A DNA stretch of 64,000 nucleotides from Campylobacterales bacterium (GTDB taxonomy: Bacteria > Campylobacterota > Campylobacteria > Campylobacterales > QNZT01). The stretch is taken from NCBI GenBank assembly GCA_027066435.1, contig JAMONX010000046.1:32895-96894 (forward strand), in the 5' to 3' direction. Of the stretch, positions 2,532 through 25,115 are shown piece after piece (positions within the stretch are counted from its first letter, which is position 1; every line of letters starts with the position of its first letter). The position numbers were made by a program, and so were the translations under genes. The notes beneath the pieces were generated by a model. The model did not search any database. It was not told the origin of the DNA and was given only the letters and a program-made list of their open reading frames with translations.

Positions 2532-3737
2532 TTAGTGTAAATCCTCGTTTAGTTTTACCTCTCTTGTGCTTCTAAAAGCTTTTATAGAACCACTCACACT
2601 ATCTTGTCTAAAGTGAATACCGTTTAAACTTGCTAATACTCCAGCTTTAAAAACATCAGTATCTATGCTTTTCCAATCAGGATTTGCATCTTTGATTTTA
2701 TTAAACTCTTCAGTTGAAATCGTTACTTTTGTACCTTCTAAGATAGTCACTCCTGCATCTACAATGCATCCATCACCTAACGGAACACCTGTAACAGAGT
2801 TCGCTCCTAAAAGAGTGTTTTCTCCGATACTTATAGGATTTCCATCTGTGCCACTAAGCACTCCTAAAATTGAAGCTCCTCCACCAACATCACTACCACT
2901 CCCAACAATCGCTGATGAACTAATACGACCTTCAACCATAACAGGTCCTGTTGTTCCTGCATTGAAGTTTATATAACTAGCCCCTGGCATGACTGTTGTT
3001 CCGCTGTGAAGTTGAGCTCCCATTCTTACTTTACTTGACTCTAAAATTCTTGTATTGTCAGCTGGAATGATATGTTGTAAAAATCTAGGAAATTTATCAA
3101 CTGAGTTTATTTCTGGATACATTCCATCTAGTTTTAAAGATATCTCATTTTCTCTTAGCCAATCTAGCTCTATTGGCATATTACCACTCCAAGCAACATT
3201 TGCAAGTATTCCAAATGCACCGTTTAAGTTTACAGACCTTAAAGCTACCTTTGAGGTAGAGAGAGCATAAAGTTTTAGATAAACACTCTCAACACTCTTA
3301 GGAGCTTCATCTTCAAAAATAAAGACTACTTTATATGAAGTTTGATCAATCATCTCAGATGCAAAAAGTTCGTTTAGGTGCTTAATCACTTGTACATTTT
3401 TGTGTTCTTCACCCGTTGCCTCATCAAGATATGGAGAAAAAGCACTCATAGCATTTGCCACAAATTCATGTGAAATGGAAGCTACAAATTCACTTCCACT
3501 AAAATCCACATAAATCCCACTCTCTTTAAGAGCCGCTACAAAAACAGCAGCTGAACCAAAATTTTCATTCCAGTTGATAATAGGATAAGTAGCCTGTAGG
3601 ATTTTTTCTGTATTTTTTTGTCCTCTATCTACCCTAGCAATTCCAAAACCAATCGGCTCTTTATAATTTTTAATCTTTTTAGTCTCTTCAACTAAAGCCT
3701 TAAAATCATCACTACTTGATATCACCTGTATCGCCAT
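2532..3737 (-). CDS. dapD: 2,3,4,5-tetrahydropyridine-2,6-dicarboxylate N-succinyltransferase (long form)
   Basis: 401 aa. C-terminal hexapeptide-repeat beta-helix (GTTVMPGASYINFNAGTTGPVMVEGRISSSAIVGSGSDVGGGASILGVLSG). A long N-terminal domain as in epsilonproteobacterial DapD. AGGAG RBS inside the upstream gene's 3' end. Confidence 0.7.
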   Translation of the reverse strand: MAIQVISSSDDFKALVEETKKIKNYKEPIGFGIARVDRGQKNTEKILQATYPIINWNENFGSAAVFVAALKESGIYVDFSGSEFVASISHEFVANAMSAFSPYLDEATGEEHKNVQVIKHLNELFASEMIDQTSYKVVFIFEDEAPKSVESVYLKLYALSTSKVALRSVNLNGAFGILANVAWSGNMPIELDWLRENEISLKLDGMYPEINSVDKFPRFLQHIIPADNTRILESSKVRMGAQLHSGTTVMPGASYINFNAGTTGPVMVEGRISSSAIVGSGSDVGGGASILGVLSGTDGNPISIGENTLLGANSVTGVPLGDGCIVDAGVTILEGTKVTISTEEFNKIKDANPDWKSIDTDVFKAGVLASLNGIHFRQDSVSGSIKAFRSTREVKLNEDLH

Positions 3738-3739
3738 TT

Positions 3740-5203
3740 TTATCTCCTGTCACTTCTTGATTTGTTTGATCTTCCTCTTTGACCTCCACCGCCTTCACGG
3801 TTACTTCGCCCTCTTCCTCCTCGGTTGTTTCTACCTCGATTTCTTCCTCGGTTTCCACCTTTATCTCCGCCACCTTTTTCATATCTTTCAAAAAGTTTGC
3901 CAACCTCTGCTGTAGATTTTCCTATCTTATTTGAGCCTTTTATATCATTTGCTTTATATAACATAGATGCAAGTTTTAATGCTATATCTTCATCAACAAA
4001 ATCTTTTTTAAGTATTTCAACTAACTCTCGTGCAATATCGCTAATATCTTGAGTTTTTATATCTTCTATCAAAGTATCTTTATTTTTCATCTGAACATCT
4101 TGGATAGTTGGAATCACTTTTGACTCTAACTTACTTCCAACATCTTTTTGAATCTTTTTAAGAGAGTTAAACTCATGCGGAGTTACGATAGAGATAGCCA
4201 ATCCCTCTTTTCCAGCTCGACCAGTTCGTCCTATTCTGTGAACATAGCTCTCAGAATCAAACGGTATATGATAGTTAAAAACATGACTCACATCACTCAC
4301 ATCAAGACCTCTAGCTGCTACATCTGTTGCTATAAGAGTCTCTATACTTCCTCTTTTAAATGCTTTTATAACTTCTTCTCTTTGTCTTTGCTCCATATCT
4401 CCGTGAAGACCTTTTGCAATTTGTCCTCTTGAAACTAGAAAAGTTGAGAGTCTATCAACCTCTTTTTTAGTACGACAAAAGACTATACTTTTAGTTGGAT
4501 TTTTATAATCCATAAGACGAATTAAAGCATCATCCCTCTCCCTCTCATCAACAACATAGTAATACTGTTTAATATTTTCATTTGTTGAGTTTTTCTTTGT
4601 AATAGTTACAAACTCTGGACGATAAAGGATAGTTTTAGAAAGCTCTTTTATCGGTGGAGGCATAGTCGCTGAAAACATCAAAGTTTGTCTAGGTCCATCA
4701 AAATGCTTAAAAATCTCCTTTATATCATCTAAAAATCCCATATCAAGCATCTCATCTGCTTCATCTAAAACCACATATTTTGGTGATATTTTTATCTGCC
4801 CATTTGAAAGAAGATCTAAAAAACGACCAGGAGTAGCAACTATAACAGAAGCTTTTTCAATGTGTTTTATCTGCCTTGTATATGAACTTCCTCCATAAAC
4901 TGTAGCTGTGTTTATCCCTAAATACTTACCAAATCTAAATATCTCATCACTCACTTGTGTCGCTAACTCACGAGTAGGAACAATAACAACAGCCTCAACC
5001 CCACTCTTACAATCCATCAAGTTTAAAACTGGCAAACCAAATGCTGCCGTTTTTCCTGTACCAGTATGAGCTTGAGCTACTATATCTTTACCATCTAATA
5101 CGATAGGTATCGCCTCAGCCTGCACGGGGCTTGGCTCTTTAAAACCAGCATCTTTGATAGCTTTTGCTAACTGTGGTTTAAAATTAAAATCTTCAAAATT
5201 CAT
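3740..5203 (-). CDS. DEAD-box ATP-dependent RNA helicase with an RGG-rich C-terminal tail
   Basis: Q-motif region FKEPSPVQ, motif I AHTGTGKTAAF, motif II VLDEADEM, SAT, and HRIGRTGRAG. The last ~44 aa are Arg/Gly low-complexity. Confidence 0.9.
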   Translation of the reverse strand: MNFEDFNFKPQLAKAIKDAGFKEPSPVQAEAIPIVLDGKDIVAQAHTGTGKTAAFGLPVLNLMDCKSGVEAVVIVPTRELATQVSDEIFRFGKYLGINTATVYGGSSYTRQIKHIEKASVIVATPGRFLDLLSNGQIKISPKYVVLDEADEMLDMGFLDDIKEIFKHFDGPRQTLMFSATMPPPIKELSKTILYRPEFVTITKKNSTNENIKQYYYVVDERERDDALIRLMDYKNPTKSIVFCRTKKEVDRLSTFLVSRGQIAKGLHGDMEQRQREEVIKAFKRGSIETLIATDVAARGLDVSDVSHVFNYHIPFDSESYVHRIGRTGRAGKEGLAISIVTPHEFNSLKKIQKDVGSKLESKVIPTIQDVQMKNKDTLIEDIKTQDISDIARELVEILKKDFVDEDIALKLASMLYKANDIKGSNKIGKSTAEVGKLFERYEKGGGDKGGNRGRNRGRNNRGGRGRSNREGGGGQRGRSNKSRSDRR

Positions 5204-5397: not shown

Positions 5398-5432
5398 TGA
5401 CATGACTTTGACACAACTTATTGATAAAATTC
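5398..5432 (+). promoter_or_regulatory. Promoter module copy 1: tandem 11-bp TGACAYRACTT repeats plus an extended -10
   Basis: TGACATGACTT (5398-5408), TGACACAACTT (5409-5419), then TGATAAAAT (TG at 5422-23, -10 TAAAAT at 5425-5430). 29/35 identical to 8251-8285. AAGGAG and the ATG of the 5460 ORF lie downstream. Confidence 0.55.
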
Positions 5433-5459
5433 ATTTTATAAAAATTAAGGAGATTTAAA

Positions 5460-5654
5460 ATGAGATGGATAGAATCATTCAAATACGCTCTAAATAAACA
5501 AGATATACAAACTATAGGTCAACTTATAAATAACTTGCCTGAATTTAATAAAATTGAAGATATGAGAAGTGCTTATACTGTTATAGGTGAAGCAAAAAAG
5601 CAATTTGAAGATACTCAATTGTTAATTCAACAAAAAATGAATAGATTTCATTAA
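5460..5654 (+). CDS. Small hypothetical protein (64 aa)
   Basis: ORF with AAGGAG 7 nt upstream, placed directly behind promoter module copy 1. No recognisable family. Confidence 0.4.
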   Translation: MRWIESFKYALNKQDIQTIGQLINNLPEFNKIEDMRSAYTVIGEAKKQFEDTQLLIQQKMNRFH

Positions 5655-5771
5655 TTAGCTAATAAATTAAATTATCTTAATTTAATTTTAAAAACAAACA
5701 CTATTTTTATAGTTTTCTTAACTTGAATTGGCTATAATTATGAAGTATATTTAATTTAAAATAGGTATAAA

Positions 5772-6434
5772 ATGTATAATAATCTAAAAGATAAAACAAT
5801 TCTCTATATAGAAGATGATGAAGTTGTTTTAAAAAACATATCAAAACTTCTTGGGAACTATTTTGCAGGTATTCATACAGCTTGTGATGGAGAACAAGGG
5901 TACAAGCAGTTTGTTAACAAAGATGTTGATTTGCTCATTGTTGATATAGAGCTACCTAAAATAAATGGTATCGAATTAATTAAAAAAATCCGTAAACTTG
6001 ATGACAATATACCTATAGTCGTTATTTCAGCATATACAAAAACTGATTATTTACTAGAGTCAGTTGAATTAAAACTTGATAAATATATCGTCAAGCCATT
6101 TACCTCAAAAAAATTACATAAATTATTACAAAAATTAGATGAGAGTTTCTTGGGTGGTAACTCATTTAAATTGATAGAAGATATACAAATAGATAAAGAA
6201 TTTAGCACTATGAAAGTAGGTGGAGAGACTTTTACATTGACAAACAAAGAGCTTGAATTTTTAGAAACTTTATCTTTAAAGGGAAATGTAACTTATGATG
6301 ATATAGATATATTATGGGTAGATCATCCACCTTCTCCAGATGCTATAAGATCATTTATAAAATCACTTAGAAAAAAATTGCCTAAAGATCTACTTAAAAA
6401 TAGACAAAGCTTGGGCTATTTTATAGAAAAATAG
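5772..6434 (+). CDS. OmpR/PhoB-family response regulator (REC plus winged helix)
   Basis: Receiver motifs ILYIEDDEVV and DLLIVDIELPKINGIEL, with K in VKPF. C-terminal trans_reg_C-like LTNKELEFLETL...SLGYFIEK. TATAAT at 5733-5738, 33 nt upstream. Confidence 0.85.
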   Translation: MYNNLKDKTILYIEDDEVVLKNISKLLGNYFAGIHTACDGEQGYKQFVNKDVDLLIVDIELPKINGIELIKKIRKLDDNIPIVVISAYTKTDYLLESVELKLDKYIVKPFTSKKLHKLLQKLDESFLGGNSFKLIEDIQIDKEFSTMKVGGETFTLTNKELEFLETLSLKGNVTYDDIDILWVDHPPSPDAIRSFIKSLRKKLPKDLLKNRQSLGYFIEK

Positions 6435-6443
6435 TTTCTCATT

Positions 6444-8201
6444 ATGAAATACCAACTATCAAAAAGACGATTGATAATACTTATTGTATTATTTCCGCTC
6501 ACAGTTTTGTTGGTTTATGGTTTTATGACTTACCTTTTTTTATCATATATACAACAAGATGATATGGATAAAGAGGTCTTAAATTTTGAAAAAAGTTTTG
6601 TTGACATTGAAAAAGAGAGACTCAAAGAAAAAGTAAATTCCCTCACCCAATATATAAGCTATTATGATGAAAAAAGTAGCGATAAAATCAAAAAAGATAT
6701 AAGAAGTATTGTTAATGTAAGTGCCGATATTGTAAATAATATTTATAGAAAGTATAGAGGCAAACTAGAGTGGAAAGATATCCAAAAGATTATTTTAGCT
6801 GCTTTAAAAGATATAAAATATGCAGATAATTATGGTCACCTTTTTATCATAAATAAAAAAGGATATGCTTACCAACATTTTGATAAAAATCTTGAAAGAA
6901 AAGTAATTTTAGATATTGAAGATGATTATGGGAAAAAATTTGTAAGAGAATTTAATGAAGTTATAGCACAAGATGGATATGGTTTTGTAGGCTATAACTG
7001 GTATAAACCAAATAACTATACTAATAGTATGTATTATAAAATCTCATACATTAAAAAACTCAACTGTTACAATTGGTACATAGGAGCTGGTGCATATATA
7101 GATGAAATCCAAGAGTTTGCAAAACAAGATATTTTAAAGTACCTTAAATCAAATGCACTATTTACAGATGGTTACTTTTTTATCATTGATGGCAACGCAA
7201 ATCCCATCTTTTACCCCAAAAACAAAGAAAAACTTCCACTAAAGCAGTTTACAAAAATAGGTTCTCATGTAGATGGGGAAAATATGTATCATATTAACTA
7301 TATCAGCAACTATAATTGGTATCTTGTAGCGGCTAGAAGCCTAGAGCATATCGGTCAAGATATAGATAAAAAGAGAGAAAAAGATATAGGTAAAAGAGAG
7401 ATGAATATGCAAACAAATCTCCTGCTTTTAGGATTGGCTTGGTTGATATCAATGCTCTTATCACTATATCTCTCAACAATTATCTATAGACAAATAAGAG
7501 GTTATGAAAAACAGATAAACCAAAGCAATGATAAGATGATGTTTCAATCGAAACAAGCACTAATAGGTGAACTCTTTAGTATGATTGCACACCAATGGAG
7601 ACAACCTATAAATAAAATTGCATCTATCATTGCTCTTGTTAGATTTGAGTTAGAAAATGACAAAATTTCAAAAGAGGATTTAGATAAGAATTTTGAAGAA
7701 ATTGAAGATAGTATAGAGTTTATGAGTGAAACGATAGATGACTTTAGGACATTTTACAAACCCACAACTAGTACAAAACTTGTAAATTTGAAGACTCTAA
7801 TAACTAGATCTATCTTCTTTTTGAAAAACTCAATCCAAAAACATGATATAAAAGTTGTTACAGAGCTTGAAGATATAGAGATGGAATTATATCGCAATGA
7901 GTTTTTACAAGTTATGCTAAATCTTATTAAAAATGGAATAGATGCAATAGGCGATCAAGGTGTTCTTATCATAAAACTATATAAACACCAAGGAGACAAA
8001 GTCATCATCTCTGTTGAAAATAGTGGAAAGAGTATCGATAAAGATGTAATGAAAAAGATATTTGAACCATACTTCACCACAAAAGACGACTCTATGGGGC
8101 TAGGACTCTATATGACAAAGATAATTGTAGAAAAACATATGAAAGGGGAGATAGTAGTAGAACCTCTTAAAGATGGTACTATCTTCACAATAATATTATA
8201 A
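6444..8201 (+). CDS. Sensor histidine kinase with periplasmic Cache-type domain(s)
   Basis: N-terminal TM helix. Cache_2-like GHLFIINKKGYAYQH...GFVGYNWYKP...WYIGAGAYIDEI. A second TM helix. H-box IAHQWRQPIN. ATPase boxes NLIKNGIDA and DSMGLGLYMTK. Confidence 0.85.
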   Translation: MKYQLSKRRLIILIVLFPLTVLLVYGFMTYLFLSYIQQDDMDKEVLNFEKSFVDIEKERLKEKVNSLTQYISYYDEKSSDKIKKDIRSIVNVSADIVNNIYRKYRGKLEWKDIQKIILAALKDIKYADNYGHLFIINKKGYAYQHFDKNLERKVILDIEDDYGKKFVREFNEVIAQDGYGFVGYNWYKPNNYTNSMYYKISYIKKLNCYNWYIGAGAYIDEIQEFAKQDILKYLKSNALFTDGYFFIIDGNANPIFYPKNKEKLPLKQFTKIGSHVDGENMYHINYISNYNWYLVAARSLEHIGQDIDKKREKDIGKREMNMQTNLLLLGLAWLISMLLSLYLSTIIYRQIRGYEKQINQSNDKMMFQSKQALIGELFSMIAHQWRQPINKIASIIALVRFELENDKISKEDLDKNFEEIEDSIEFMSETIDDFRTFYKPTTSTKLVNLKTLITRSIFFLKNSIQKHDIKVVTELEDIEMELYRNEFLQVMLNLIKNGIDAIGDQGVLIIKLYKHQGDKVIISVENSGKSIDKDVMKKIFEPYFTTKDDSMGLGLYMTKIIVEKHMKGEIVVEPLKDGTIFTIIL

Positions 8202-8250
8202 CCTGGAATATTTTGAACTTTTTACTAAAAAAGTAAAAATACTTAACTAA

Positions 8251-8285
8251 TGACACAACTTTGACACAACCTATTGTTATACTTC
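8251..8285 (+). promoter_or_regulatory. Promoter module copy 2: tandem 11-bp TGACACAAC repeats plus an extended -10
   Basis: TGACACAACTT (8251-8261), TGACACAACCT (8262-8272), then TGTTATACT (TG at 8275-76, -10 TATACT at 8278-8283). Same register as copy 1. Confidence 0.55.
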
Positions 8286-8321
8286 TTACAGAATTAGAAA
8301 TATAACATAAAAGGAAGAGAT

Positions 8322-8441
8322 ATGAAGTTTATAAGCAAGAGGTTACAAAACATTGACGCACTTTTAGAGCAGCTAATAAATCTACTCATAACAAACAAGC
8401 AACCGCAAGCCGAGTTTGCAGTCGCTAGATGCAAGGTGTAG
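8322..8441 (+). CDS. Possible 39-aa small protein (MKFISKRLQNIDALLEQLINLLITNKQPQAEFAVARCKV)
   Basis: Not in the ORF track because it is too short. AAGGAAG lies 6 nt upstream. It sits behind promoter module copy 2, and its stop is 2 nt before the next ATG. Confidence 0.25.
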   Translation: MKFISKRLQNIDALLEQLINLLITNKQPQAEFAVARCKV

Positions 8442-8443
8442 AG

Positions 8444-8656
8444 ATGCAAGACCTTAAAAAAATATCAAGCAAAGATATAGCAGAGGCTGTAGGGAAAACG
8501 GCTCCAGCAATAAGCTACCTAAAAAAAAGAAATGCTAATGAGTTTTCACTACTAAAACTCGGTGTATTATGTACAAAGCTAAACTTAGACGATGAAGATC
8601 TTATGGCGATGCATACACTAAAACAAATCGGACTTAAAAATAGAATAGCTTGTTAA
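8444..8656 (+). CDS. Small helix-turn-helix protein (71 aa; the ORF track starts it at 8429)
   Basis: HTH-like SSKDIAEAVGKTAPAISYLKKRN. AGGTG lies 5 nt upstream of the ATG at 8444. Confidence 0.4.
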   Translation: MQDLKKISSKDIAEAVGKTAPAISYLKKRNANEFSLLKLGVLCTKLNLDDEDLMAMHTLKQIGLKNRIAC

Positions 8657-8749: not shown

Positions 8750-11053
8750 CTATTTCTCTAAAAGCACATCCTGTTTTTCATATACCAATCCTTCTTTTTT
8801 CCCCACATACTCCAACTCACCAACTATCTCATTTTTCTTCATCTCAATACCAGTTGGAACTCTCACACTATGAATCTGCACCGCCGTTTGTTTAAAGTTT
8901 GGTTCAAAAGATTTTGGGTCAAAAAGTGATTGAGTTAATCTGTTGATCAACTCGGTGTTAAAATGAAACGGTACAAAAACATCTCCTTCCCTAACTACTT
9001 GTGTCACTTTTACAGTTATATCTTCTACCTTGCCACGAGGAGAACTTATAGCAATCTTTTCGCCACTTTTTACTTTTAGTTTATCTGCATCCTTTGGATT
9101 TAACTCTATCCAAGCTTCAGGAGCTAAATTATCAAGAATAGCAATAGTTCCTGTCTTTGTTCTTGTGTGAAACTGTTCAACGGTTCTTCCTGTATTTAGA
9201 GTTAATGGAAACTTCTCACACAGAGACTCCTCCATCGGCTCCCAATCAGCACAGACAAATTTAGGCTTACCATCATCAGTAGAACAAGGCATATCTTTGC
9301 CGTAGAGTCTTTTTGTTCCATTTGGATTTTTTTCATTGCACGGCCATTGAATTCCGCCAAGTTTTTCTATTTTTTGATAACTCATAGAGCTATAATCACA
9401 CAATCTTCCATAACTCACTTTTTGCCACTCTTTAAATGCATCTAGTGGCTCTTCCCAATCTTTGAAAAGTAGTTCATTTACCCCTTCAAAATATTTTGAG
9501 AACTCCAAAACGATATGAAAATCACTCATACTTTTTCCTAGTGGTTCTACCGCTTTTTTAGCTCTATTGCATCTTCTCTCGCTATTTGTATAGACTCCCT
9601 CTTTTTCACTCCAAGTAGAAGCTGAAAAAACTATATCTGCAATCTTTGCAGTATCACTCATAAATGAATCTTGCACTACTAAAAGCTCCAACTTTTCAAA
9701 AGCAGCTCTTAGACGAGATTGGTCAGGATAACTTATTAGTGGATTTGTAGCTATAATCCAAAGTGCTTTTATCTCACCTTTTTCTATAGCTTCTATGATT
9801 TGCGGATATGAGTAACCTCTCTTTTTAGGGACTATCTCTACAGGCACATTTACAATACTTGCATACTCTTCTCTATCATAAGAGCTTGCAAAATTTCTAT
9901 ATCCTGGAATTGAGCTTGTAAATCCACTCTCTCTGCTTCCCATAGCATTGCACTGCCCTGTTAAGCTCATAGGAGAACTACCCTCTTTTCCAAGATTACC
10001 CGTCATCAATGCTAAATTACATATCGCTGATACAGTATCAGTTCCCAAAGCTGATTGATTAACACCCATAGTCCATGCACTCATAGCTTTTTCTGCTCCT
10101 GCATAGACTCTTGCTAATTCATAAAGCTCTTTAACTCCGATACCTGTGATATTTGATACCTCTGATGGAGGGTATTTTTGGATATGTTTTACAAACTCTC
10201 TATATCCAGATGCACTATCTCTCATAAACTCTTCATCAGCCCAGCCCTGCTCCCAGATAATATGGCACAATCCATTGATAAGTGCTAAATCACTTCTAGG
10301 CTTTAAAGGTACAAAGATATCAGCCATATTTGCTGTTTTTGAGTGCCTTGGATCTATAACGATTATAGTTGGTTTTTTACCTGTTATTTTTTTATTTTTT
10401 GCGATATGAAGTTTAAGAATTGGATGATTATCTGCTATATTTGCACCTATTAACATAATGACATCAGCATGTGAAAAGTCTTCATAACAACCAGGAGGTC
10501 CATCACTTCCAAAACTCTGCTTATACCCCATCACTGCACTTGCCATACAAAGTGTGGTATTTCCATCAAAATTATTTGTTTTTAAACCAAGTTGGACAAA
10601 TTTTCCAAGTACATAAAACTCCTCTGTTAAAAGTTGTCCAGTTGAGATGCAAGCAACAGAACCCGAGCCATAGACTTTTGCAACTTCTTTAAACTTATCA
10701 CTCACTTTTAAAAATGCTTCATCCCACTCAACCTCAACCAATTTACCATTTTTTCTAATTTGTGGTGACAAGGCTCTATTATCAGCTCTTACCATCTCAT
10801 ATTGACTTAAACCTTTTGGACAAAGTGTTCCTTTGCTTACTGGATGTGCAGGATCTCCTTTTGTATAAACAGGTTTACCATCTTTTACCCCGATATATAA
10901 ACCGCACCCTACCCCACAATAACCACAAGTTGAACGAACCCAACTATCTGGTTTTTTTGCTTTGGCAACTTTACCAAATATCTCATCATCAACTAACTCA
11001 TATTTTTCATTTTTGATGTCAAATCCCAAAAAATCTTTTATTTTTTTTATCAT
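8750..11053 (-). CDS. Molybdopterin oxidoreductase, cytoplasmic Nas/Nap-type nitrate reductase catalytic subunit (putative)
   Basis: N-terminal FeS motif CGYCGVGCG...x26...CPKG. Mo-ligand region GNTTLCMASAVMGYKQSFG (Cys, not Sec). No twin-arginine signal. ATGA overlap with the upstream FeS/anchor gene. Confidence 0.75.
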   Translation of the reverse strand: MIKKIKDFLGFDIKNEKYELVDDEIFGKVAKAKKPDSWVRSTCGYCGVGCGLYIGVKDGKPVYTKGDPAHPVSKGTLCPKGLSQYEMVRADNRALSPQIRKNGKLVEVEWDEAFLKVSDKFKEVAKVYGSGSVACISTGQLLTEEFYVLGKFVQLGLKTNNFDGNTTLCMASAVMGYKQSFGSDGPPGCYEDFSHADVIMLIGANIADNHPILKLHIAKNKKITGKKPTIIVIDPRHSKTANMADIFVPLKPRSDLALINGLCHIIWEQGWADEEFMRDSASGYREFVKHIQKYPPSEVSNITGIGVKELYELARVYAGAEKAMSAWTMGVNQSALGTDTVSAICNLALMTGNLGKEGSSPMSLTGQCNAMGSRESGFTSSIPGYRNFASSYDREEYASIVNVPVEIVPKKRGYSYPQIIEAIEKGEIKALWIIATNPLISYPDQSRLRAAFEKLELLVVQDSFMSDTAKIADIVFSASTWSEKEGVYTNSERRCNRAKKAVEPLGKSMSDFHIVLEFSKYFEGVNELLFKDWEEPLDAFKEWQKVSYGRLCDYSSMSYQKIEKLGGIQWPCNEKNPNGTKRLYGKDMPCSTDDGKPKFVCADWEPMEESLCEKFPLTLNTGRTVEQFHTRTKTGTIAILDNLAPEAWIELNPKDADKLKVKSGEKIAISSPRGKVEDITVKVTQVVREGDVFVPFHFNTELINRLTQSLFDPKSFEPNFKQTAVQIHSVRVPTGIEMKKNEIVGELEYVGKKEGLVYEKQDVLLEK

Positions 11054-17406: not shown

Positions 17407-19167
17407 ATGGATTTTAAAACATTAAATAAATATACTAAAAACTTACGCCTTCTTTATATAGAAGATGATGAAGAGATTTGCAAACAAAGCGTAGAACTAC
17501 TAGAACTATTTTTTGAAGATGTCATCATCTGTTACAACGGAGAAGAAGCTCTTGAAACTTATAAATCTGACTTATATTTAACAAACAGACTATTTGATAT
17601 TATCATAACCGATATTCATATGCCTAAAATGGATGGAATAGAGTTAATTGAAAATGTTTTAAGATTAAATCCTAAACAAGCTATAACTGTTATCTCAGCA
17701 GATGGTGGTAACTCTTTTACACTACTTAAACTTATAAATTTAGGCATTAACAGTTTTTTACTAAAACCATTAAAAGAGAATCAATTAATAGATACTCTAT
17801 ATAAAGCCTCAAAGAATTTATATAATGAAAAAATTGCACTTCAATACAATCAAAAGATAACCACATCAAATCTAAGACTAGAACAAGAGATAAAAAGAAG
17901 AACAAAAAGACTAAAAGAACAACTCTATACAGATAACTTAACAGGATTAAAAAACCGAAGTGCCTTAGGAAGAGATATTGACAATAACTCTTACAATATG
18001 ATAGCTCTTATTGATATTGATCGTTTTCAATTTATAAATGATCTCTACGGTGCAAAAATAGGAAACCAAGTTATCAGAGAGTTTACAAGCTTCTTAAAGA
18101 AAAATGTAGATAAAACTCATTATAAACTTTATCGAACATCAGGGGATGAGTTTGCAATCTGCCATAAAGGAGAAGATGCTCTTCACTTTGAAAATTTTAT
18201 AATTAACCTTAGTAAAAGTGTTACAAATTTGCCTCTTTTTATTCAAAAACTAACTGATACAATATATCTAGATGCAACTATCGGTCTATCTTTTGAGAAA
18301 AAACAACTTTTAACAAATTGTGACATAGCTCTGCGTCATGCAAAGAAAAATAAAAAACCACTTATAATATATAGAGATGAAATAAATACTCTTAAAAATA
18401 TAAAAGATGCACTAGAGTGGAAATATAAAATTCGTCATGCATTAGAAAATGACAATATTATTCCCATTTTTCAACCAATTGTTGACAAAGAGGGAGAAAT
18501 TTTAAAGTATGAAGCCTTAATGAGACTAAAAGAGCATACAGTCGATGGTGAACAACTAGTCTCTCCTAGCTTTTTCTTAGAGACCGCAGTTTTAACAAAA
18601 CAATATCCAAAACTTTCACATACAATAATCAAAAAATCACTCCAACACTTAATAAAAAATGATATAACTTTATCAATAAATCTAACATACAGTGACTTTA
18701 TAGATGAACAAATCATAACACTTATCACTGATATATTAGACAAAGAAGAGATTGGTAATAGACTTATTTTTGAAATTGTTGAGAGTGAAGATATCAAAGA
18801 CTATGCTTTACTACAGAGCTTTATAGAAAAGTTTAGAAAATATGGTGTTAAAATTGCAATTGATGATTTTGGGAGTGGTTTTTCAAACTTTGGGAATATT
18901 ATACAAACTAAACCAGATTATCTAAAAATTGATGGTTCACTTATAAAAAATATTGATACAAGTAGCCATACACAAACTATGGTAAGAGCAATAATGCAAA
19001 TTGCAAATGAGTTAGATATAAAAATAATTGCCGAATTTGTACACTCAAAAGAGGTTTTTGAAGCACTACATAAATTTGATATAGATGAGTTTCAAGGTAA
19101 CTATTTTTATGAGCCTTCAACTGCATTAATAGAAAAAAAAGGTACAATAAAACTAAAAACAATCTAA
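17407..19167 (+). CDS. Response regulator with GGDEF and EAL domains (c-di-GMP turnover)
   Basis: REC (LLYIEDDEE, IIITDIHMPKMDG). GGDEF domain with SGDEF in place of GGDEF. EAL motifs YEALMRL, EIVESE, DDFGSGFSNF, KIDGS and QGNYF. Confidence 0.85.
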   Translation: MDFKTLNKYTKNLRLLYIEDDEEICKQSVELLELFFEDVIICYNGEEALETYKSDLYLTNRLFDIIITDIHMPKMDGIELIENVLRLNPKQAITVISADGGNSFTLLKLINLGINSFLLKPLKENQLIDTLYKASKNLYNEKIALQYNQKITTSNLRLEQEIKRRTKRLKEQLYTDNLTGLKNRSALGRDIDNNSYNMIALIDIDRFQFINDLYGAKIGNQVIREFTSFLKKNVDKTHYKLYRTSGDEFAICHKGEDALHFENFIINLSKSVTNLPLFIQKLTDTIYLDATIGLSFEKKQLLTNCDIALRHAKKNKKPLIIYRDEINTLKNIKDALEWKYKIRHALENDNIIPIFQPIVDKEGEILKYEALMRLKEHTVDGEQLVSPSFFLETAVLTKQYPKLSHTIIKKSLQHLIKNDITLSINLTYSDFIDEQIITLITDILDKEEIGNRLIFEIVESEDIKDYALLQSFIEKFRKYGVKIAIDDFGSGFSNFGNIIQTKPDYLKIDGSLIKNIDTSSHTQTMVRAIMQIANELDIKIIAEFVHSKEVFEALHKFDIDEFQGNYFYEPSTALIEKKGTIKLKTI

Positions 19168-22100
19168 TGAAAAAACTCTATATACTTGTACTATTACTTC
19201 TATCTCAACTCATCAATGCATCCCAACTAGAAAATGTTTCAATCCAACTTAAATGGAAGCACTCTTTCCAGTTTGCTGGTTATTATGCAGCCATTGAAAA
19301 AGGCTTTTACAAAGAAAAAGGACTTAATGTCACACTAAAAGAGATAGATATGAGTCGTGATTTTATACAAGATGTAGTAGATGGAAAGTCTCAATACGGT
19401 GTATCAGACAGCTCTTTGATAATACGCCGTCAAGAAAATGAACCTGTTGTATTAATATCACAAATTTTCCAGCACTCTCCACTCGTTTTAATTTCACATC
19501 GTGATTCAAATATTACCACCCCTTATGAGATGAGCAATAAAAAAATCATGTATTCACTTAATAATAGCGGTGGCACTCCCTTTAATGCACTCTTTTTAAA
19601 TTCTATAGGCACATATAAAAATCTTAACATAACAGAATTTACAAACTATCAAGATTTTATAGATAAGAAAGTTGATGTTACTTCAGCTTACTCAACTTCA
19701 CAACCATACATGCTAAAAAAACAAGGTATAGACATAAATATAATCGACCCTAAAAGTTATGGTATAGATTTTTACGGAGATAATTTCTTTACAACTGAGA
19801 AAGAGCTTCAAAATCATCCCAAAAGAGTGGAAAAAATGAGACAAGCTACACTAAAGGGCTGGGAATATGCACTCTCCAACCAAAAAGAGATAATAGATAT
19901 AATAATTCAAAAATATGCATCTAAGAGCGATAAAGATTTACTCTCTTTTGAAGCAAGAGGTATATATCAGATGGTTATACCTGACTTAACAAAGATTGGC
20001 ACTATTAATAAAGATAAATATGAAAAAGTTATAAAAACTTATCATAAACTAGGATTAGTAAAAAAATTAAAAATAGATGAGGGCTTCTTTTATCAGAAAA
20101 AGTTACAAAAAGTTCTTTTAACAAATGAAGAAAAAAGTTGGATAAAAGAGCATCCCATTGTAATTGTTGGAGGAGGACCAGACTGGGCACCTTTTGATTT
20201 TGTGAATAAAAAAGGTAAATACAATGGAATTTCGAATGATTATTTAAATCTTTTAAGTAAATATACAAATCTAAAATTTAAAGTAGTTGTTGATAAATGG
20301 AGCAATAATCTTCAAAAAATGAAAGATGGCAAAATTGATCTTTTACATGCAATTTACTATACAGATAAACGCTCAACATATATGAACTATACAAAGCCCT
20401 ACTTTGAGATGCTTGATTACTTTTTTATCCGAGATGATTTAAATGTAGAAACAATTGAAGATTTAAATGGAAAGAGAGTTGCAGTTCCTAGAGAATATGC
20501 ACATGAAGATATCCTTAAAAAGGAGTTTCCTAAGATTAAAATTATCACTGTTGAAACTTTTTCACAATCTATAGATGCCGTTTTAGAAAATAAAGCAGAT
20601 ATATTATTTAATACTTATGCATCTCTCTCTTATGTTCTCAAAAGAGAAGGTATAAATACAATTATCCCATTTAAATCCTATCGAGGACATGGCATGATGA
20701 GACTGCATATGAGTACGAATCAAAATAACCTCATACTTGCACAAATCATAGATAAAGCTCTTATTGCAATCACAGATAATGAGAAAAAAGAGATTTATGA
20801 TAGATGGATTGGTAAAAATATTCAAAATACTCAAAAGCTTATTAATTTAACAAACAAAGAGAAAGAATGGATTAAAGAAAATCACAATATTACATTTGCT
20901 GGTGATCCTGACTGGATGCCATTTGAATCTTTTGACGAACAGGGCAATTATAAAGGAATTGTTGCTGATTATTTAAAAGAGGTAGAAAACAGGGTTGCTT
21001 TATCCTTTAAACCTATAACTGTAAAAAGCTGGCGGGAGACACTAAAAATTGCACAAGATGAAAATGTTGATGTAATTTCTGGAGATATTGATAATATCAT
21101 TTTAGCAAAAAAATATGAACCAATTACTCCATATTTTGAAACACCAATTGTAATTGTTACAAATAGCAAACACTCATTTATCAATGATTTAGAAGATATC
21201 AAAGATAAAAAAATAGCTATTATCAATGATTATGGCTATACAAATAGGTTAAAATCAAGTTATAAAAATATCAACTTTATAAAAATACCCAATATTCAAG
21301 AAGCATTTGACAAACTTCTATTTGAAAATATAGATGCACTTTTACTCTCTATGCCTGCAGCTTCATATTTGATTAAAACAAGGGGATTAGACTCTTTAAA
21401 GATTTCTGGAAAAACTGTAGTATCTATGCATCCTACTCTCTTTGTACATAAAGATAAAGCTTTACTTCATAGTATAATTGAAAAAACAATGGCTGGAATT
21501 GGAAATAGTAGAAATAGAGAAATTTTAGGAAAATGGCAAAAGATTGAATTTGCAAAGAGGGTAGATTATACTTTAATATACCAACTACTTGGTATTTTTT
21601 TACTTTTTATCTTAGGTGCACTTTACTGGAATAGAAAACTTAAAGCTGAAGTTATAAAAAGAGAAGAGAGTGAGATGCAGATAAGAACACTTATGGATAT
21701 TATCCCTCTCAATATTCTTGTTACCACTTATGGAGGGAAAATACTCCTAGCAAATCCTCAAACTCTTAAATATCATCAAATCCCAAAAGAGGATATAAAA
21801 AACTATAATATTTTGGATTTTTATTCAAATCCAAAAGAGCGAGAAGTTGTATTAAGTGAATTGAAAAAAAATGGAAGTGTAAAACAGAAAATTGTAAAGT
21901 TTAAGAGCTCAAATAGTAAAACTCATGATTTGATGATATCACTCCTGCCCATTACTTATCATAAACAAAATGCGCTACTTGCTCTTGGAGTTGATTTAAC
22001 AGATAGACTTAAAATGGAAAAAGAGCTATCACTTGCTAAAGAGAGTGCAGAAAAAGCAAATTTAGCTAAAAGTGAATTTTTAGCAAATATGTCTCACGAA

Positions 22101-23504
22101 ATACGAACACCAATGAACTCGGTTATCGGATTTACTGAACTTTTATCTAAACTTATAAAAGATCCTATCCAAAAAGATTATCTTGATTCTATTCATAGGG
22201 GTGGTCAATCACTTCTTGCTATCATAAATGATATTCTCGACCTTTCAAAGATTGAAGCTGGCAAAATGGAAATTACTTTGGAGAGTGTAGATATAAAACA
22301 GTTGATATATGAGATGGAATCAATTTTTAGTGTAAAACTTATACAAAAAAATTTGATTTTTGAAGTAGATATTGATGAATCTATTCCTAAATACTTACTT
22401 CTTGATAACACTAGAGTTAGACAAATTCTTTTTAATGTCATAGGTAATGCTATCAAATTTACTAATAATGGGAAAATAAAACTTTCAATTAAAAAAACTT
22501 ATATTGACAATAAAAACAGCAAAGTAAATTTAATTTTAATCATTGAAGATAGTGGCATTGGAATCAAAGAAGAAAACCTTGAGTATATATTTGATTCGTT
22601 TGAACAACAACAAGGGCAAAATCATAAATATGGAGGAACAGGACTAGGACTTGCAATCTGCAAAAAACTCTTATCCATTATGAATGGGAAGATAAGTGTA
22701 GAAAGTAAATTTGGCGAAGGTTCAAAATTTACAATTTTTTTAGAAAAAATCTCAGTTAGTTCTGTAGAAAACATTATAGATAAAGCTAAAAATATAACAA
22801 AAGAGTTAAAATTCAAACCCTCTATTGTCCTTATAGTAGACGATATAACAGATAATAGAAAATTAGTCCACTCCGCACTTAAACCTTATGGTCTTACTAT
22901 CATTGAAGCAGTTAATGGAAAAGATGCATTAGAAAAACTAAAAAACATTAAAGTTGATCTTATTTTTATGGATATCAAAATGCCTATTATGGATGGATAT
23001 GAAGCAACTCAAATCATAAAAAATGACCCCCAACTAAAAAAAATTCCCATAATAGCTCTTACAGCTTCAGTGATGGGAAAAGATATGGAAAAAATCATAA
23101 ATTATAAATTTGATGGATATTTACGAAAACCTGTTGGAATTGATAAGTTAGTAGAAGAGATGGCTAGATTTTTACCACACCAATCACTAGAGATAAAAGA
23201 AGATAATGGGATGCAAATAAGTCAAAATGGATATAAATATCTTGAATCTGTAATAGAAACATTAGAGAAGAAATTTCTTATAACATGGGAAAAAATTAAA
23301 GATAAAGGTGATTTTGAACCAATAGAAAATTTTGCTAATGAACTTAAGAGTTTGATTGAAAACAAAGGTATTTATTTACTTGAAGGGTTTGCAAAAGAGC
23401 TAAAACTAAGCTGTGAAAGTTTTGATATAGAACAAATTGATTTTCTAATGAATAACTTTCCAAATGTTATAAAAAAATTAAAAAAGATGTTAAAAAATGA
23501 GTAA
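19167..23504 (+). CDS. Hybrid sensor histidine kinase (1445 aa): three periplasmic solute-binding domains, TM, PAS, HisKA, HATPase, REC, Hpt-like tail
   Basis: Signal peptide. NMT1/SsuA-like domain (SIQLKWKHSFQFAGYYAA). Two SBP_bac_3-like repeats (LTNEEKSWIKEHPIVIVGGGPDWAPFDF and LTNKEKEWIKENHNITFAGDPDWMPFES). TM helix LIYQLLGIFLLFILGALYW. H-box LANMSHEIRTPMN. G-box GGTGLGLAICKKL. REC IVLIVDD...LIFMDIKMPIMDG. Confidence 0.85.
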   Translation: MKKLYILVLLLLSQLINASQLENVSIQLKWKHSFQFAGYYAAIEKGFYKEKGLNVTLKEIDMSRDFIQDVVDGKSQYGVSDSSLIIRRQENEPVVLISQIFQHSPLVLISHRDSNITTPYEMSNKKIMYSLNNSGGTPFNALFLNSIGTYKNLNITEFTNYQDFIDKKVDVTSAYSTSQPYMLKKQGIDINIIDPKSYGIDFYGDNFFTTEKELQNHPKRVEKMRQATLKGWEYALSNQKEIIDIIIQKYASKSDKDLLSFEARGIYQMVIPDLTKIGTINKDKYEKVIKTYHKLGLVKKLKIDEGFFYQKKLQKVLLTNEEKSWIKEHPIVIVGGGPDWAPFDFVNKKGKYNGISNDYLNLLSKYTNLKFKVVVDKWSNNLQKMKDGKIDLLHAIYYTDKRSTYMNYTKPYFEMLDYFFIRDDLNVETIEDLNGKRVAVPREYAHEDILKKEFPKIKIITVETFSQSIDAVLENKADILFNTYASLSYVLKREGINTIIPFKSYRGHGMMRLHMSTNQNNLILAQIIDKALIAITDNEKKEIYDRWIGKNIQNTQKLINLTNKEKEWIKENHNITFAGDPDWMPFESFDEQGNYKGIVADYLKEVENRVALSFKPITVKSWRETLKIAQDENVDVISGDIDNIILAKKYEPITPYFETPIVIVTNSKHSFINDLEDIKDKKIAIINDYGYTNRLKSSYKNINFIKIPNIQEAFDKLLFENIDALLLSMPAASYLIKTRGLDSLKISGKTVVSMHPTLFVHKDKALLHSIIEKTMAGIGNSRNREILGKWQKIEFAKRVDYTLIYQLLGIFLLFILGALYWNRKLKAEVIKREESEMQIRTLMDIIPLNILVTTYGGKILLANPQTLKYHQIPKEDIKNYNILDFYSNPKEREVVLSELKKNGSVKQKIVKFKSSNSKTHDLMISLLPITYHKQNALLALGVDLTDRLKMEKELSLAKESAEKANLAKSEFLANMSHEIRTPMNSVIGFTELLSKLIKDPIQKDYLDSIHRGGQSLLAIINDILDLSKIEAGKMEITLESVDIKQLIYEMESIFSVKLIQKNLIFEVDIDESIPKYLLLDNTRVRQILFNVIGNAIKFTNNGKIKLSIKKTYIDNKNSKVNLILIIEDSGIGIKEENLEYIFDSFEQQQGQNHKYGGTGLGLAICKKLLSIMNGKISVESKFGEGSKFTIFLEKISVSSVENIIDKAKNITKELKFKPSIVLIVDDITDNRKLVHSALKPYGLTIIEAVNGKDALEKLKNIKVDLIFMDIKMPIMDGYEATQIIKNDPQLKKIPIIALTASVMGKDMEKIINYKFDGYLRKPVGIDKLVEEMARFLPHQSLEIKEDNGMQISQNGYKYLESVIETLEKKFLITWEKIKDKGDFEPIENFANELKSLIENKGIYLLEGFAKELKLSCESFDIEQIDFLMNNFPNVIKKLKKMLKNE

Positions 23505-23892
23505 TATATTAATTGTAGATGATATGCCTAAAAATATCCAAATGGCAATGAATATGCTAAAGGGAGAGGGGCATCATATGTTTTATGCCAAAAATGCTAA
23601 AATGGGTTTAAATATAGTAAAAGAGCAAAAAATCGATATAATTCTTTTAGATATTATGATGCCACAGATGGATGGTTATCAAATGTGTAAAATTTTGAAA
23701 AGTGATAAAAATACAAAAGATATACCTGTAATATTTTTATCAGGAAAAGATTCAAGTGAAGATATACAAAAAGCATATGAAGCTGGTGGAGTAGATTATA
23801 TCACTAAGCCTTTTATCGATATTGAACTCAAAACAAAAGTTTCAATTCAAACAGAATTAGTTAGACTAAGAAAGGAATTTATGTGCGCCTAA
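23497..23892 (+). CDS. Single-domain CheY-like response regulator
   Basis: ILIVDDMPKN, IILLDIMMPQMDG and DYITKPF. It overlaps the hybrid kinase gene by 8 nt. Confidence 0.85.
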   Translation: MSNILIVDDMPKNIQMAMNMLKGEGHHMFYAKNAKMGLNIVKEQKIDIILLDIMMPQMDGYQMCKILKSDKNTKDIPVIFLSGKDSSEDIQKAYEAGGVDYITKPFIDIELKTKVSIQTELVRLRKEFMCA

Positions 23893-25115
23893 AAAACAGA
23901 AGTGCCAAGATACTGCTCATAGATGATAATCCAAAAAATTTACAAGTTGCTATGGGTATTTTAAATAAAGAGGGATACAACCTAATCTACGCACAAGATG
24001 GTAAAAAAGGGCTAGAGTTAGCACAAAAAGGAGATTTTAATCTAATTCTATTAGATATTGTGATGATGGGAATGGATGGATATAGTGTTTGTCAAGAGCT
24101 AAAAAGCAATATAAAAACTAAAGAGATTCCTATAATATTTTTAACAGTAAAAGATGAAGAACAAGATATCGTAAAAGGTTTTGAATATGGCGGAGTTGAT
24201 TATATCACTAAACCTTTTTATTCGGAAGTACTTCTTAGAAAAGTAAAGACACATATAAATCTCTCAAAAACAACTAAAGAATTAAAGCATCTAAATGAAA
24301 ACTTGGCAAGAACTGTCGAAGAACAGGTTGAAAAAATTCGCCTTAAAGAGCAAATTCTTTTTCAACAATCTAAAATGGCAGCAATGGGAGAGATGATAGC
24401 AAATATCGCTCACCAGTGGAGACAACCTCTAAGTGCTATATCTACCACGGCTATTGGACTTAAAATCAAACTCCAAACTGAACACTTTAATCTTTCAAAC
24501 CAAGAAGGAGTTGAGAAGTGTATTGAAGATGCAAATAAAAAGCTTGATGATATTGAAGAGTATATAGGAATACTATCTGATACAATTGATGATTTTAGAA
24601 ACTTTTTTAAGCCACAAAAAAATGTTGAAAGTTTTGATATAGATACGGTTGTTCAAAAAAGCATAAAACTTCTTGAAGCAAATTTCAAAGATAGTCATAT
24701 AAGATTTATAAATGATACAAAAAATATAGAAATAGTTGGCTTTGAAAATGAACTAGCACAAGTTTTAATAAATATACTAAATAATGCAAGAGATGCATTA
24801 ATAGAACAAGATGATTTAGCTGAGAAACTGATTTTTATATCTACAAAGAAGAGTGGTGACTTTTTAATAATTAGCATAAAAGATAGTGCTGGTGGTATAA
24901 AAGAGGAGTTACTAGATAAGATTTACGAACCTTACTTTACTACAAAACATCAATCAATTGGAACTGGAATAGGACTTTATATGAGTCAAGAAATTATAAA
25001 AAAACATATGCATGGTACAATAGAAACAAAGAATGTCAAATACACATACGATAAAAAATATTATTTTGGTGCTGAATTTACAATTAAAATTCCACTAAAA
25101 ATTAAAGGTATTTAA
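23883..25115 (+). CDS. REC-histidine kinase fusion (GTG start)
   Basis: The receiver is ~50% identical by eye to the preceding regulator (ILLIDDNPKN, LILLDIVMMGMDG, DYITKPF). H-box IAHQWRQPLS. ATPase boxes NILNNARDA and GTGIGLYMSQ. Confidence 0.8.
   Translation: MRLKNRSAKILLIDDNPKNLQVAMGILNKEGYNLIYAQDGKKGLELAQKGDFNLILLDIVMMGMDGYSVCQELKSNIKTKEIPIIFLTVKDEEQDIVKGFEYGGVDYITKPFYSEVLLRKVKTHINLSKTTKELKHLNENLARTVEEQVEKIRLKEQILFQQSKMAAMGEMIANIAHQWRQPLSAISTTAIGLKIKLQTEHFNLSNQEGVEKCIEDANKKLDDIEEYIGILSDTIDDFRNFFKPQKNVESFDIDTVVQKSIKLLEANFKDSHIRFINDTKNIEIVGFENELAQVLINILNNARDALIEQDDLAEKLIFISTKKSGDFLIISIKDSAGGIKEELLDKIYEPYFTTKHQSIGTGIGLYMSQEIIKKHMHGTIETKNVKYTYDKKYYFGAEFTIKIPLKIKGI

Follow-up and report, generated by a model that had tools for sequence, protein, structure and literature searches.

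Twin direct-repeat promoter modules around a Cache-kinase two-component system in an uncultivated Campylobacterales bacterium: probable targets of an OmpR/PhoB-type regulator

A 35-bp sequence module occurs twice in a 64-kb stretch of DNA (contig JAMONX010000046.1, positions 32,895 to 96,894; hereafter the window) from an uncultivated Campylobacterales bacterium of 32% G+C, whose proteins have their nearest named relatives in Sulfurospirillum and in metagenome-assembled genomes (MAGs) of the Sulfurospirillaceae. The two copies flank the genes for an OmpR/PhoB-family response regulator and for a sensor histidine kinase with a periplasmic Cache domain, and we consider both copies, on the strength of sequence comparison, to be probable operator-promoter modules of a regulon under the control of this adjacent two-component system. 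Each module (Table 1) begins with two head-to-tail 11-bp direct repeats of consensus TGACAYRACTT, which five nucleotides separate from an extended -10 element, an architecture that had been proposed in an earlier sequence-only reading of the same DNA and that is borne out here. The same reading predicted a compact, autoregulated regulon of the OmpR-type regulator. The core of that proposal, that the modules are operator-promoters of this regulator, finds support in the comparison of related loci; autoregulation is not shown, and compactness is doubtful.

The two copies, TGACATGACTTTGACACAACTTATTGATAAAATTC at 5398-5432 and TGACACAACTTTGACACAACCTATTGTTATACTTC at 8251-8285, agree at 29 of 35 bases, with mismatches at positions 6, 7, 21, 27, 30 and 32. 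Their coordinates and identity are as first described, and they have no further match within the 64 kb: the degenerate 20-mer TGACAYRACTTTGACACAAC, searched on both strands with up to three mismatches, finds these two copies only, and in shuffled sequence it gives a mean of 0.02 matches, with none of 100 shuffles containing two. A weight matrix of 33 columns, made from 27 related sites, gives the copies 48 and 41 bits, whereas the rest of the window stays at or under 8 bits and the maximum in shuffled sequence is 10 bits. The looser pattern TGACA-N6-TGACA, with one mismatch allowed, matches in the window at chance level. The likeness between the copies ends at the boundaries of the module, and each is followed, as had been noted, by a Shine-Dalgarno sequence and a small open reading frame (AAGGAG with ATG 5460; AAGGAAG with ATG 8322).

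The geometry of the module is that expected of an activator site. The -10 hexamers, TAAAAT (5425-5430) in the first copy and TATACT (8278-8283) in the second, each have TG two bases upstream, and both occupy module positions 28-33, as is also the case in the 27 related sites. With the hexamer numbered -12 to -7, the two repeats come to lie between -39 and -18. Each repeat unit can be read as a 7-bp core, TGACACA, with a 4-bp spacer, which gives a core box of 18 bp that stops nine bases short of the -10. OmpR/PhoB regulators bind as tandem dimers to 7-bp direct repeats with a 4-bp spacer, and extra units add affinity (PMC4832192); of the loci compared here (numbered L003 and so on), L202 has four repeat units and L096 three. 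The TTGACA strings within the module are 11 and 22 nt away from the -10, where a -35 element would stand at 16-18 nt, and therefore neither can act as one. Moreover, the two 11-bp units are conserved together, in tandem, at positions beyond any -35 hexamer too. The layout is thus of the class II, pho-box-like kind, with a site over the -35 region, a fixed distance to the -10 and no -35 hexamer at 16-18 nt. The -10 boxes of the targets are often TATACT instead of TATAAT, i.e. mildly sub-optimal.

Table 1. Features of the two modules and the genes around them (positions in the window), and sites of the same repeat in Clostridia (positions in the loci named).
Feature	Position	Strand	Description
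Upstream operator	5398..5419	+	Two head-to-tail 11-bp units, TGACATGACTT and TGACACAACTT
orf64 promoter, extended -10 TGATAAAAT	5422..5430	+	Predicted start near 5437
orf64	5460..5654	+	64-aa predicted helical protein; Shine-Dalgarno AAGGAG conserved
All-A/T 11-bp hairpin after orf64	5664..5688	+	-6.4 kcal/mol, z -1.1; weak terminator at best
Regulator-kinase operon promoter	5730..5738	+	-10 TATAAT 5733-5738, G two bases upstream, without repeat
OmpR/PhoB-family response regulator	5772..6434	+	Receiver domain and divergent winged helix
Sensor histidine kinase	6444..8201	+	Periplasmic dCache_2, HisKA and HATPase_c
Downstream operator	8251..8272	+	Two head-to-tail 11-bp units, TGACACAACTT and TGACACAACCT
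orf39-HTH70 promoter, extended -10 TGTTATACT	8275..8283	+	Predicted start near 8290
orf39	8322..8441	+	39 aa; Shine-Dalgarno AAGGAAG; stop two bases before ATG 8444; translationally coupled to HTH70
HTH70	8444..8656	+	70-aa four-helix protein
Hairpin and UUUU over HTH70 stop codon	8640..8671	+	81-nt stretch -15.8 kcal/mol, z -2.0; likely operon terminator
Clostridia sites	L096 3995-4012 (-); L112 3514-3531; L114 1464-1481; L124 4124-4141 (-); L187; L197 ~102-119; L143 6228-6245		

The evidence that ties the module to this two-component system comes from orthologous loci. In 15 independent loci with unrelated flanking genes (the window, L003, L005, L007, L009, L012, L013, L014, L016, L018, L098, L103, L110, L138 and L204) the kinase stop codon is directly followed by the module. 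Four of these have regulators that are 83% (L003), 79% (L005), 72% (L007) and 68% (L009) identical to that of the window and sit among wholly different neighbours (glycogen genes, ribosomal protein L9/HslUV, nos genes and secA); in all four, the repeat, the gap, the -10 and then an orthologue of the 70-aa helix-turn-helix-like protein HTH70 are found 25-90 nt past the kinase stop. Five further loci (L012, L013, L014, L016 and L018) were added by a metagenome scan with the kinase alignment, at about 50% kinase identity, and in four of the five the driven gene is a different one: an OmpA-like lipoprotein in L013, a secreted metallophosphatase in L016 and other exported proteins in L012 and L014. 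The module drives a secreted protein of 214-221 aa in L098 and L103. Three of the added loci (L013, L014 and L016, with about 55% regulator identity) use their own operator variant, TGmCAyACTTTTGmCAy, at four sites. The module was not found in the more distant L011, L017, L020 and L021 (44-50% kinase identity), and across 439 kb around 80 relatives of the Cache kinase the weight matrix located the motif solely at the orthologous loci. The bracketing of regulator and kinase by two copies, to which the sequence-only reading had drawn attention, recurs in L204 and probably in L202, and is restricted to a subclade.

A wider survey gives a first view of the regulon. The pattern ACAYRACTTTGACACAAS was scanned through one genome per species for 185,579 species, a set in which the source bacterium is represented by relatives only, and returned 107 stretches, with about 140 estimated by chance for 33 bits. 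Campylobacterales account for 15 sites from 11 MAGs, three of which carry two or three sites on different contigs; L103 has two sites in one locus. The string TAnnnT follows at the fixed offset in all 15 Campylobacterales sites, as against 11 of 99 in other taxa, and all 15 are sense-oriented and lie 50-70 nt upstream of a start codon or of a structured non-coding transcript. The targets include HTH70 (with or without a small leader ORF), the 214-221-aa secreted family, which has a weak match to DUF4412, a PKD lipoprotein and a DctP-type binding protein of tripartite ATP-independent periplasmic (TRAP) transporters (E 5e-99). It is this spread in relatives, with two or three sites on different contigs serving secreted, TRAP binding and small RNA-like targets, that makes the notion of a compact regulon doubtful; the related expectation that the outputs are tiny proteins holds within the window (orf64, orf39 and HTH70).

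The non-coding targets fall into two types. At L115 (~1813-1965), L150 (~4612-4760) and L194 (~4207-4355) the module drives a non-coding RNA of about 150 nt, in which a hairpin at the 5' end (AUAAGCUUA...UGAGCUUAU) is joined by a long closing stem that shows compensatory changes, a conserved CUCCUUAAAAA stretch (CUCCUU) and a terminator U-run, and at L117 (~222-290; all four counted along the motif strand) it precedes a different hairpin transcript that carries CUCCUU in its loop. Rfam gave no match in the window or at these non-coding targets. We regard all four transcripts as candidate small RNAs under two-component control that share a motif resembling an anti-Shine-Dalgarno sequence. Three neighbouring genes may also be mentioned here: a homologue of the phosphate-starvation-inducible PsiE lies downstream of the module in L194 (4529-4996, motif strand), the secreted metallophosphatase of L016 begins at 3082, downstream of its module, and a metallophosphatase adjoins the copy of orf64 in L203. 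Together PsiE and the metallophosphatases hint, faintly, at a theme related to phosphate or nucleotides.

The same repeat is also found far outside the Campylobacterales. Seven loci in Clostridia (MAGs of Lachnospiraceae and Oscillospiraceae; Table 1) have ACAYAACTTTGACACAA with a -10 at the same offset, placed 50-120 nt upstream of an OmpR-family regulator gene that is followed by a kinase gene, save that L143 retains a truncated regulator remnant only. This arrangement is of the classical autoregulated type, and it shows the repeat in that position to serve, by prediction, as an OmpR-family operator elsewhere.

The regulator of the window is the natural candidate for the protein that reads these sites. 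Its receiver domain matches Response_reg (E 4.1e-25), and residues E14, D15, D58 and K108 are invariant in the orthologue alignment. The C-terminal match to Trans_reg_C (21 bits, cut-off 26.2) covers the profile from position 1 to 76 of 77, PF00486 is present in many orthologues, and full-length phmmer matches (residues 10-218) include DrrD, PrrA, MtrA and BasR; we read this region as a likely divergent member of the winged-helix family. No NCBIfam cut-off was reached by the regulator, and an identity with PhoB was rejected (60 bits for the NCBIfam PhoB model vs a cut-off of 296 bits). In the kinase, dCache_2 (E 5.5e-51) and HATPase_c (E 1.7e-16) are accompanied by a HisKA match of 23.7 bits, slightly under the cut-off, and the H-box SMIAHQWRQP is invariant. 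With its periplasmic Cache region held between two transmembrane segments and joined to HisKA and HATPase_c, the protein has the make-up of a Cache-type kinase; the Cache region itself has a weak match to the monocarboxylate sensor MctS. The other proteins of the window with a receiver (REC) domain are a REC-GGDEF-EAL protein, a hybrid kinase, a single REC protein and a REC-kinase. None of them has a DNA-binding domain, which leaves the regulator, as previously remarked, the sole OmpR-type regulator nearby. They make up a signalling cluster at 17407-25115, in which the hybrid kinase, of 1445 aa, has periplasmic NMT1 and SBP_bac_3 domains.

We propose the following mechanism. The kinase would sense a periplasmic ligand through its dCache_2 domain and phosphorylate the OmpR/PhoB-type regulator. 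A head-to-tail dimer of the regulator would then settle on the two 11-bp direct repeats between -39 and -18, nine bases upstream of the extended -10, and at this pho-box-like position, overlapping the -35 region, would recruit sigma-70 RNA polymerase. The outputs in the window would be two short transcripts, one for orf64 and the other for orf39 and HTH70. The sequences themselves establish the architecture of the module, its conservation, its place beside the two-component system and its presence at several sites per genome; binding by this particular regulator, activation as opposed to repression, and the transcription starts are points that we infer. The spacing between repeat and -10 does not vary over 27 sites and two phyla, and this speaks for a contact with RNA polymerase on one defined face, i.e. 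for activation.

Several observations weigh against this proposal. The winged helix of the window's regulator is divergent, with its Trans_reg_C match under the Pfam cut-off, and its recognition helix reads DAIRSFIKSLRKKL, unlike the RTLDSHIQRLRKKL of the Clostridia regulators encoded behind the same repeat. HTH70 is almost always itself a target and offers an alternative binder, an idea that we rate as improbable and return to below. Finally, extended -10 promoters of Campylobacterota may need no activator, and occupancy from -39 to -18 could repress them.

This last point leads to the main rival reading, which keeps the same regulator and the same sites and has the bound protein block polymerase at promoters that are otherwise constitutive. 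Both promoters do have good TGnTAnAnT boxes, the operator overlaps the polymerase footprint, and a -35 element is generally dispensable in Campylobacterota. On the other hand, an invariant distance from repeat to -10, kept in the 27 sites and in the Clostridia, is needed for face-specific activation and not for simple occlusion; the geometry is that of pho-box promoters, which are activated; and the mildly sub-optimal TATACT boxes again fit repression poorly. On balance we think repression unlikely, while taking it seriously.

The regulator also has a competitor in HTH70, which might itself bind the repeats, so regulating its own synthesis and that of orf64, with the two-component system a mere neighbour. 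HTH70 looks like a DNA-binding helix-turn-helix protein, and the module precedes HTH70 genes in every lineage seen, including L154, where the gene lies far from the system. Yet XRE-type dimers normally read inverted repeats and not head-to-tail units with an 11-bp period; the loci L012, L013, L014 and L016 contain no HTH70 gene, and the module behind their kinase genes drives other ones; and the Clostridia operator stands before OmpR-family regulator genes, again without HTH70. Control of the module by HTH70 is for these reasons improbable. Still less credit is due to the view that these are ordinary promoters, in which TTGACA serves as the -35 or an alternative sigma factor is at work and the likeness of the copies reflects a promoter consensus. 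TTGACA is the sigma-70 -35 consensus, each copy contains a promoter-like match at 9 of 12 positions (5402-5430 and 8250-8277, the second pairing with TATTGT and not with the proposed -10), and CAACTT is placed 16 nt upstream of the -10, as is known from promoters of the extracytoplasmic function (ECF) type. The distances of TTGACA from the -10 and the conservation of both 11-bp units as a tandem pair speak against it, such promoter-like matches are no commoner in the region than in shuffles (22 vs 24.7), the regulator's own promoter and others are without the repeat, and the -10 is a standard sigma-70 extended -10. Readings as sigma-28 (TAAA-N15-CGAT), sigma-54 (GG-N10-GC) or plain -35 promoters were ruled out by misfits of pattern or spacing. 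That the copies are a dispersed repeat, a mobile element or a recent local duplication of no regulatory meaning is scarcely credible: the 20-mer does turn up across many phyla, and Bacteroidales MAGs even have it in tandem arrays, but the similarity of the copies stops at the module edges, each copy is like the one at the corresponding position in other genomes (the first unit TGACATGACTT is shared with L200), every Campylobacterales instance is sense-oriented and 50-70 nt before a gene or RNA start, and neither terminal repeats nor transposase genes are present.

With the regulator retained as the probable reader of the modules, the question of feedback arises. The claim of autoregulation is not supported as it stands. 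The regulator-kinase operon has a promoter of its own, and in L003, L005, L007, L009, L098, L103 and L138, as in the window, a repeat-free extended -10 is conserved some 40 nt ahead of the regulator ATG; the upstream copy of the module drives orf64, which lies 312 nt before the regulator gene. A terminator scan between orf64 and the regulator gene detected nothing. Only a weak A/T hairpin stands there (Table 1), and transcripts begun at the orf64 promoter could therefore run on into the regulator gene and give positive feedback, which the model does not require. Among the orthologues, the repeat is found in the regulator's own promoter only in the distant L016, and it is so placed in the Clostridia analogues too. 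In L016 (556-596) the regulator ATG (594) comes 5 nt past the -10 hexamer (583-588) of the repeat-bearing promoter, which is the second module of that locus, a distance that implies a leaderless, directly autoregulated regulator-kinase mRNA. A separate element of the regulator's 5' untranslated region, ATATTTAACTnAT, is conserved just 5' of the Shine-Dalgarno sequence in all orthologues (window 5745-5771; L003 5975-6000) and recurs directly upstream of the downstream operator in the window (8236-8250), in L003 (8470-8490; 17 nt identical) and in L005. It was considered as part of the module and dropped, since L098, L103 and L138 do not share it.

The product of orf64 belongs to a family of 45 clusters (profile search) that exists in two forms. 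The long form, of 82-85 aa, is encoded directly after flaG-fliD-fliS in L198 and L200; the short form, of 64-69 aa, is without the last ~19 residues. At 63% identity to an 83-aa long form, orf64 is a short-form member, and the module precedes all six independent short-form genes (window, L198, L200, L202, L203 and L204). These stand beside the two-component system in the window, L202 and L204, beside the flagellar operon and right after the long form in L198 and L200, and in an unrelated context in L203. L204 reproduces the full order of the window, from module, orf64, regulator and kinase to the second module, small ORF and HTH70, and L202 probably shares the whole layout. The predicted structure of the 83-aa paralogue is a two-helix hairpin. 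Neither it nor orf64 has a match in Pfam or NCBIfam, the model of the paralogue matches no PDB fold, and the 45 clusters of the profile search carry no informative name. In Helicobacter pylori the gene after fliS, HP0754, is annotated fliT (PMC2864241). The 82-85-aa paralogue of orf64 resembles HP0754/FliT in occupying the last slot of flaG-fliD-fliS-X and in being a predicted small all-helical protein; unlike FliT, orf64 is without the last ~19 residues and is driven by a two-component promoter and not by a flagellar one. An identity with FliT was set aside for both orf64 and the 83-aa paralogue: no sequence, Pfam, NCBIfam or fold match was found, and the position after fliS alone is common to them.

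In the downstream transcript, peptides like orf39 hold the same place in L003 (37 aa, with a 4-nt overlap with the next gene), in the second copy of L005, in L009 and in L161. Hydrophobic peptides take its place in L138, L154 and L103, and no such peptide is present in the first copy of L005 or in L007, L110 and L018. HTH70 is probably a divergent helix-turn-helix protein of XRE/Cro type, as judged from profile and structure comparisons. It scores 21.6 bits against HTH_26 (cut-off 22), its AlphaFold model has four helices (pLDDT, the predicted local distance difference test, 89.8), and Foldseek returns weak matches (E>1), nearly all of them helix-turn-helix DNA-binding proteins and mostly of the XRE/C-protein and LacI types. 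Orthologues are 55-69% identical and rare, with only 30 cluster representatives among 1.84 billion proteins. A convergent gene (8750-11053) lies beyond the hairpin that ends the transcript. Within orf39, just before the HTH70 ribosome-binding site, is the most G+C-rich hairpin of the region (8398-8426, 11 pairs), flagged by the scan as a minus-strand terminator; no counterpart was seen in the matching sequence of L003. In L005 a second pair of orf39-like (34 aa) and HTH70 genes follows the first HTH70 at 8757-9110, without a canonical repeat, which suggests that the output cassette was duplicated in tandem.

Further occurrences of the repeat units in other taxa are recorded here for completeness. 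MAGs of Bacteroidales/Paludibacteraceae have tandem arrays of three or four TGACACAACTT units (L101 3411-3446, L122 4020-4059, L139 ~7967-8000 and L149 2356-2395), which are followed in L122 and L149 by TTTCrGTGGTTTGGGC; the available sequence of L101 and L139 stops with the array or shortly beyond it. Eleven Shewanella genomes (L094, L116, L129, L134, L155, L160, L165, L177, L180, L191 and L195) share AGACATAACTTTGACACAAGyCyAaATAATTGAC, presumably as one orthologous locus unrelated to this system. The Clostridia MAG RGIG4549 has three exact TTGACACAACTTTGACACAACTTTT sites, in L095 (~1291), L145 (~1776) and L157 (~1642; motif-strand coordinates), two of them with similar flanks, AATAATTTATAyTAT upstream and CAAAACTTTGAGTTTTTGGCTTA downstream, which suggests a repeated element or a regulon.

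Among known systems, DccRS and PhosSR of Campylobacter jejuni have OmpR-type regulators that act through direct-repeat operators on small sets of mostly envelope or secreted genes, with different motifs (WTTCAC-N6-TTCACW and GTTTCN4-5GTTTC). To our knowledge, the kinases of these two systems are without a dCache_2 sensor and neither system has HTH70 or orf64 as a target. In the pho box, two 11-bp direct repeats (a 7-bp core and a 4-bp spacer) take the place of a -35, and the 18-bp box that they form stands some 9-10 bp from the -10, on its upstream side. The present modules resemble this class II, sigma-70 region 4-dependent system of PhoB in Escherichia coli in having two 11-bp repeats that replace the -35 and a regulator of the OmpR/PhoB family. 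They differ from it in their core, TGACACA and not CTGTCAT (PMC4415409), TGTCA being shared in opposite orientation on the same strand, and also in the sensor, which is a Cache kinase and not PhoR, in the recognition helix and in the targets, which are not phosphate-uptake genes. PhoP of Mycobacterium tuberculosis likewise binds 7-bp motifs with a strict 4-bp spacer (TCACAGC-N4-TCACAGC) as a tandem dimer, and three or four units bind better (PMC4832192); its core shares CACAnC with the ACACAAC found here, a resemblance of sequence only that implies no homology of sites, and its phylum, sensor and regulon are other ones. Closer by taxonomy, SulRS of Sulfurimonas hydrogeniphila is an OmpR-family system of the Campylobacterota whose regulator binds two direct repeats in promoters beside its own genes, but its motif is TTTAYATTTAKKAGWTACAMTTA (TTACA repeats), its targets are the sox clusters and the published domain list of SulS contains no Cache domain (PMC12936845). 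A text search of the literature for the motif strings returned only unrelated primer matches. The design, an OmpR/PhoB regulator on direct repeats that replace the -35, is textbook; this uncultivated Campylobacterales system has not been described before.

As a more speculative idea, and one to which we would assign only a slim chance, the system may act as a switch from signal to motility. When stimulated, the Cache system would make orf64, a truncated paralogue of the protein in the FliT position that would compete with or mimic the full-length protein in flagellar export or assembly, together with the XRE-like HTH70 and, in relatives, the CUCCUU small RNAs that would extend the response; in addition, a single 20-bp operator would serve, in two phyla, two lineages of OmpR-family regulators whose recognition helices differ.

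For the biology of these bacteria, the gain is a new instance and not a new concept. A two-component system of Sulfurospirillaceae-like MAGs acquires a defined operator (TGACAYAACTT twice, 5 nt and an extended -10), a predicted mechanism of activation and a first list of regulon members: HTH70, from a rare family, the shortened paralogue of the gene behind fliS, proteins that are secreted or belong to the envelope, a TRAP binding protein and transcripts resembling small RNAs. Its interest lies in the flagellar-locus paralogue, the rare HTH70, the small RNA-like targets and an operator that crosses phyla, and its regulon would now be predictable from sequence in MAGs.

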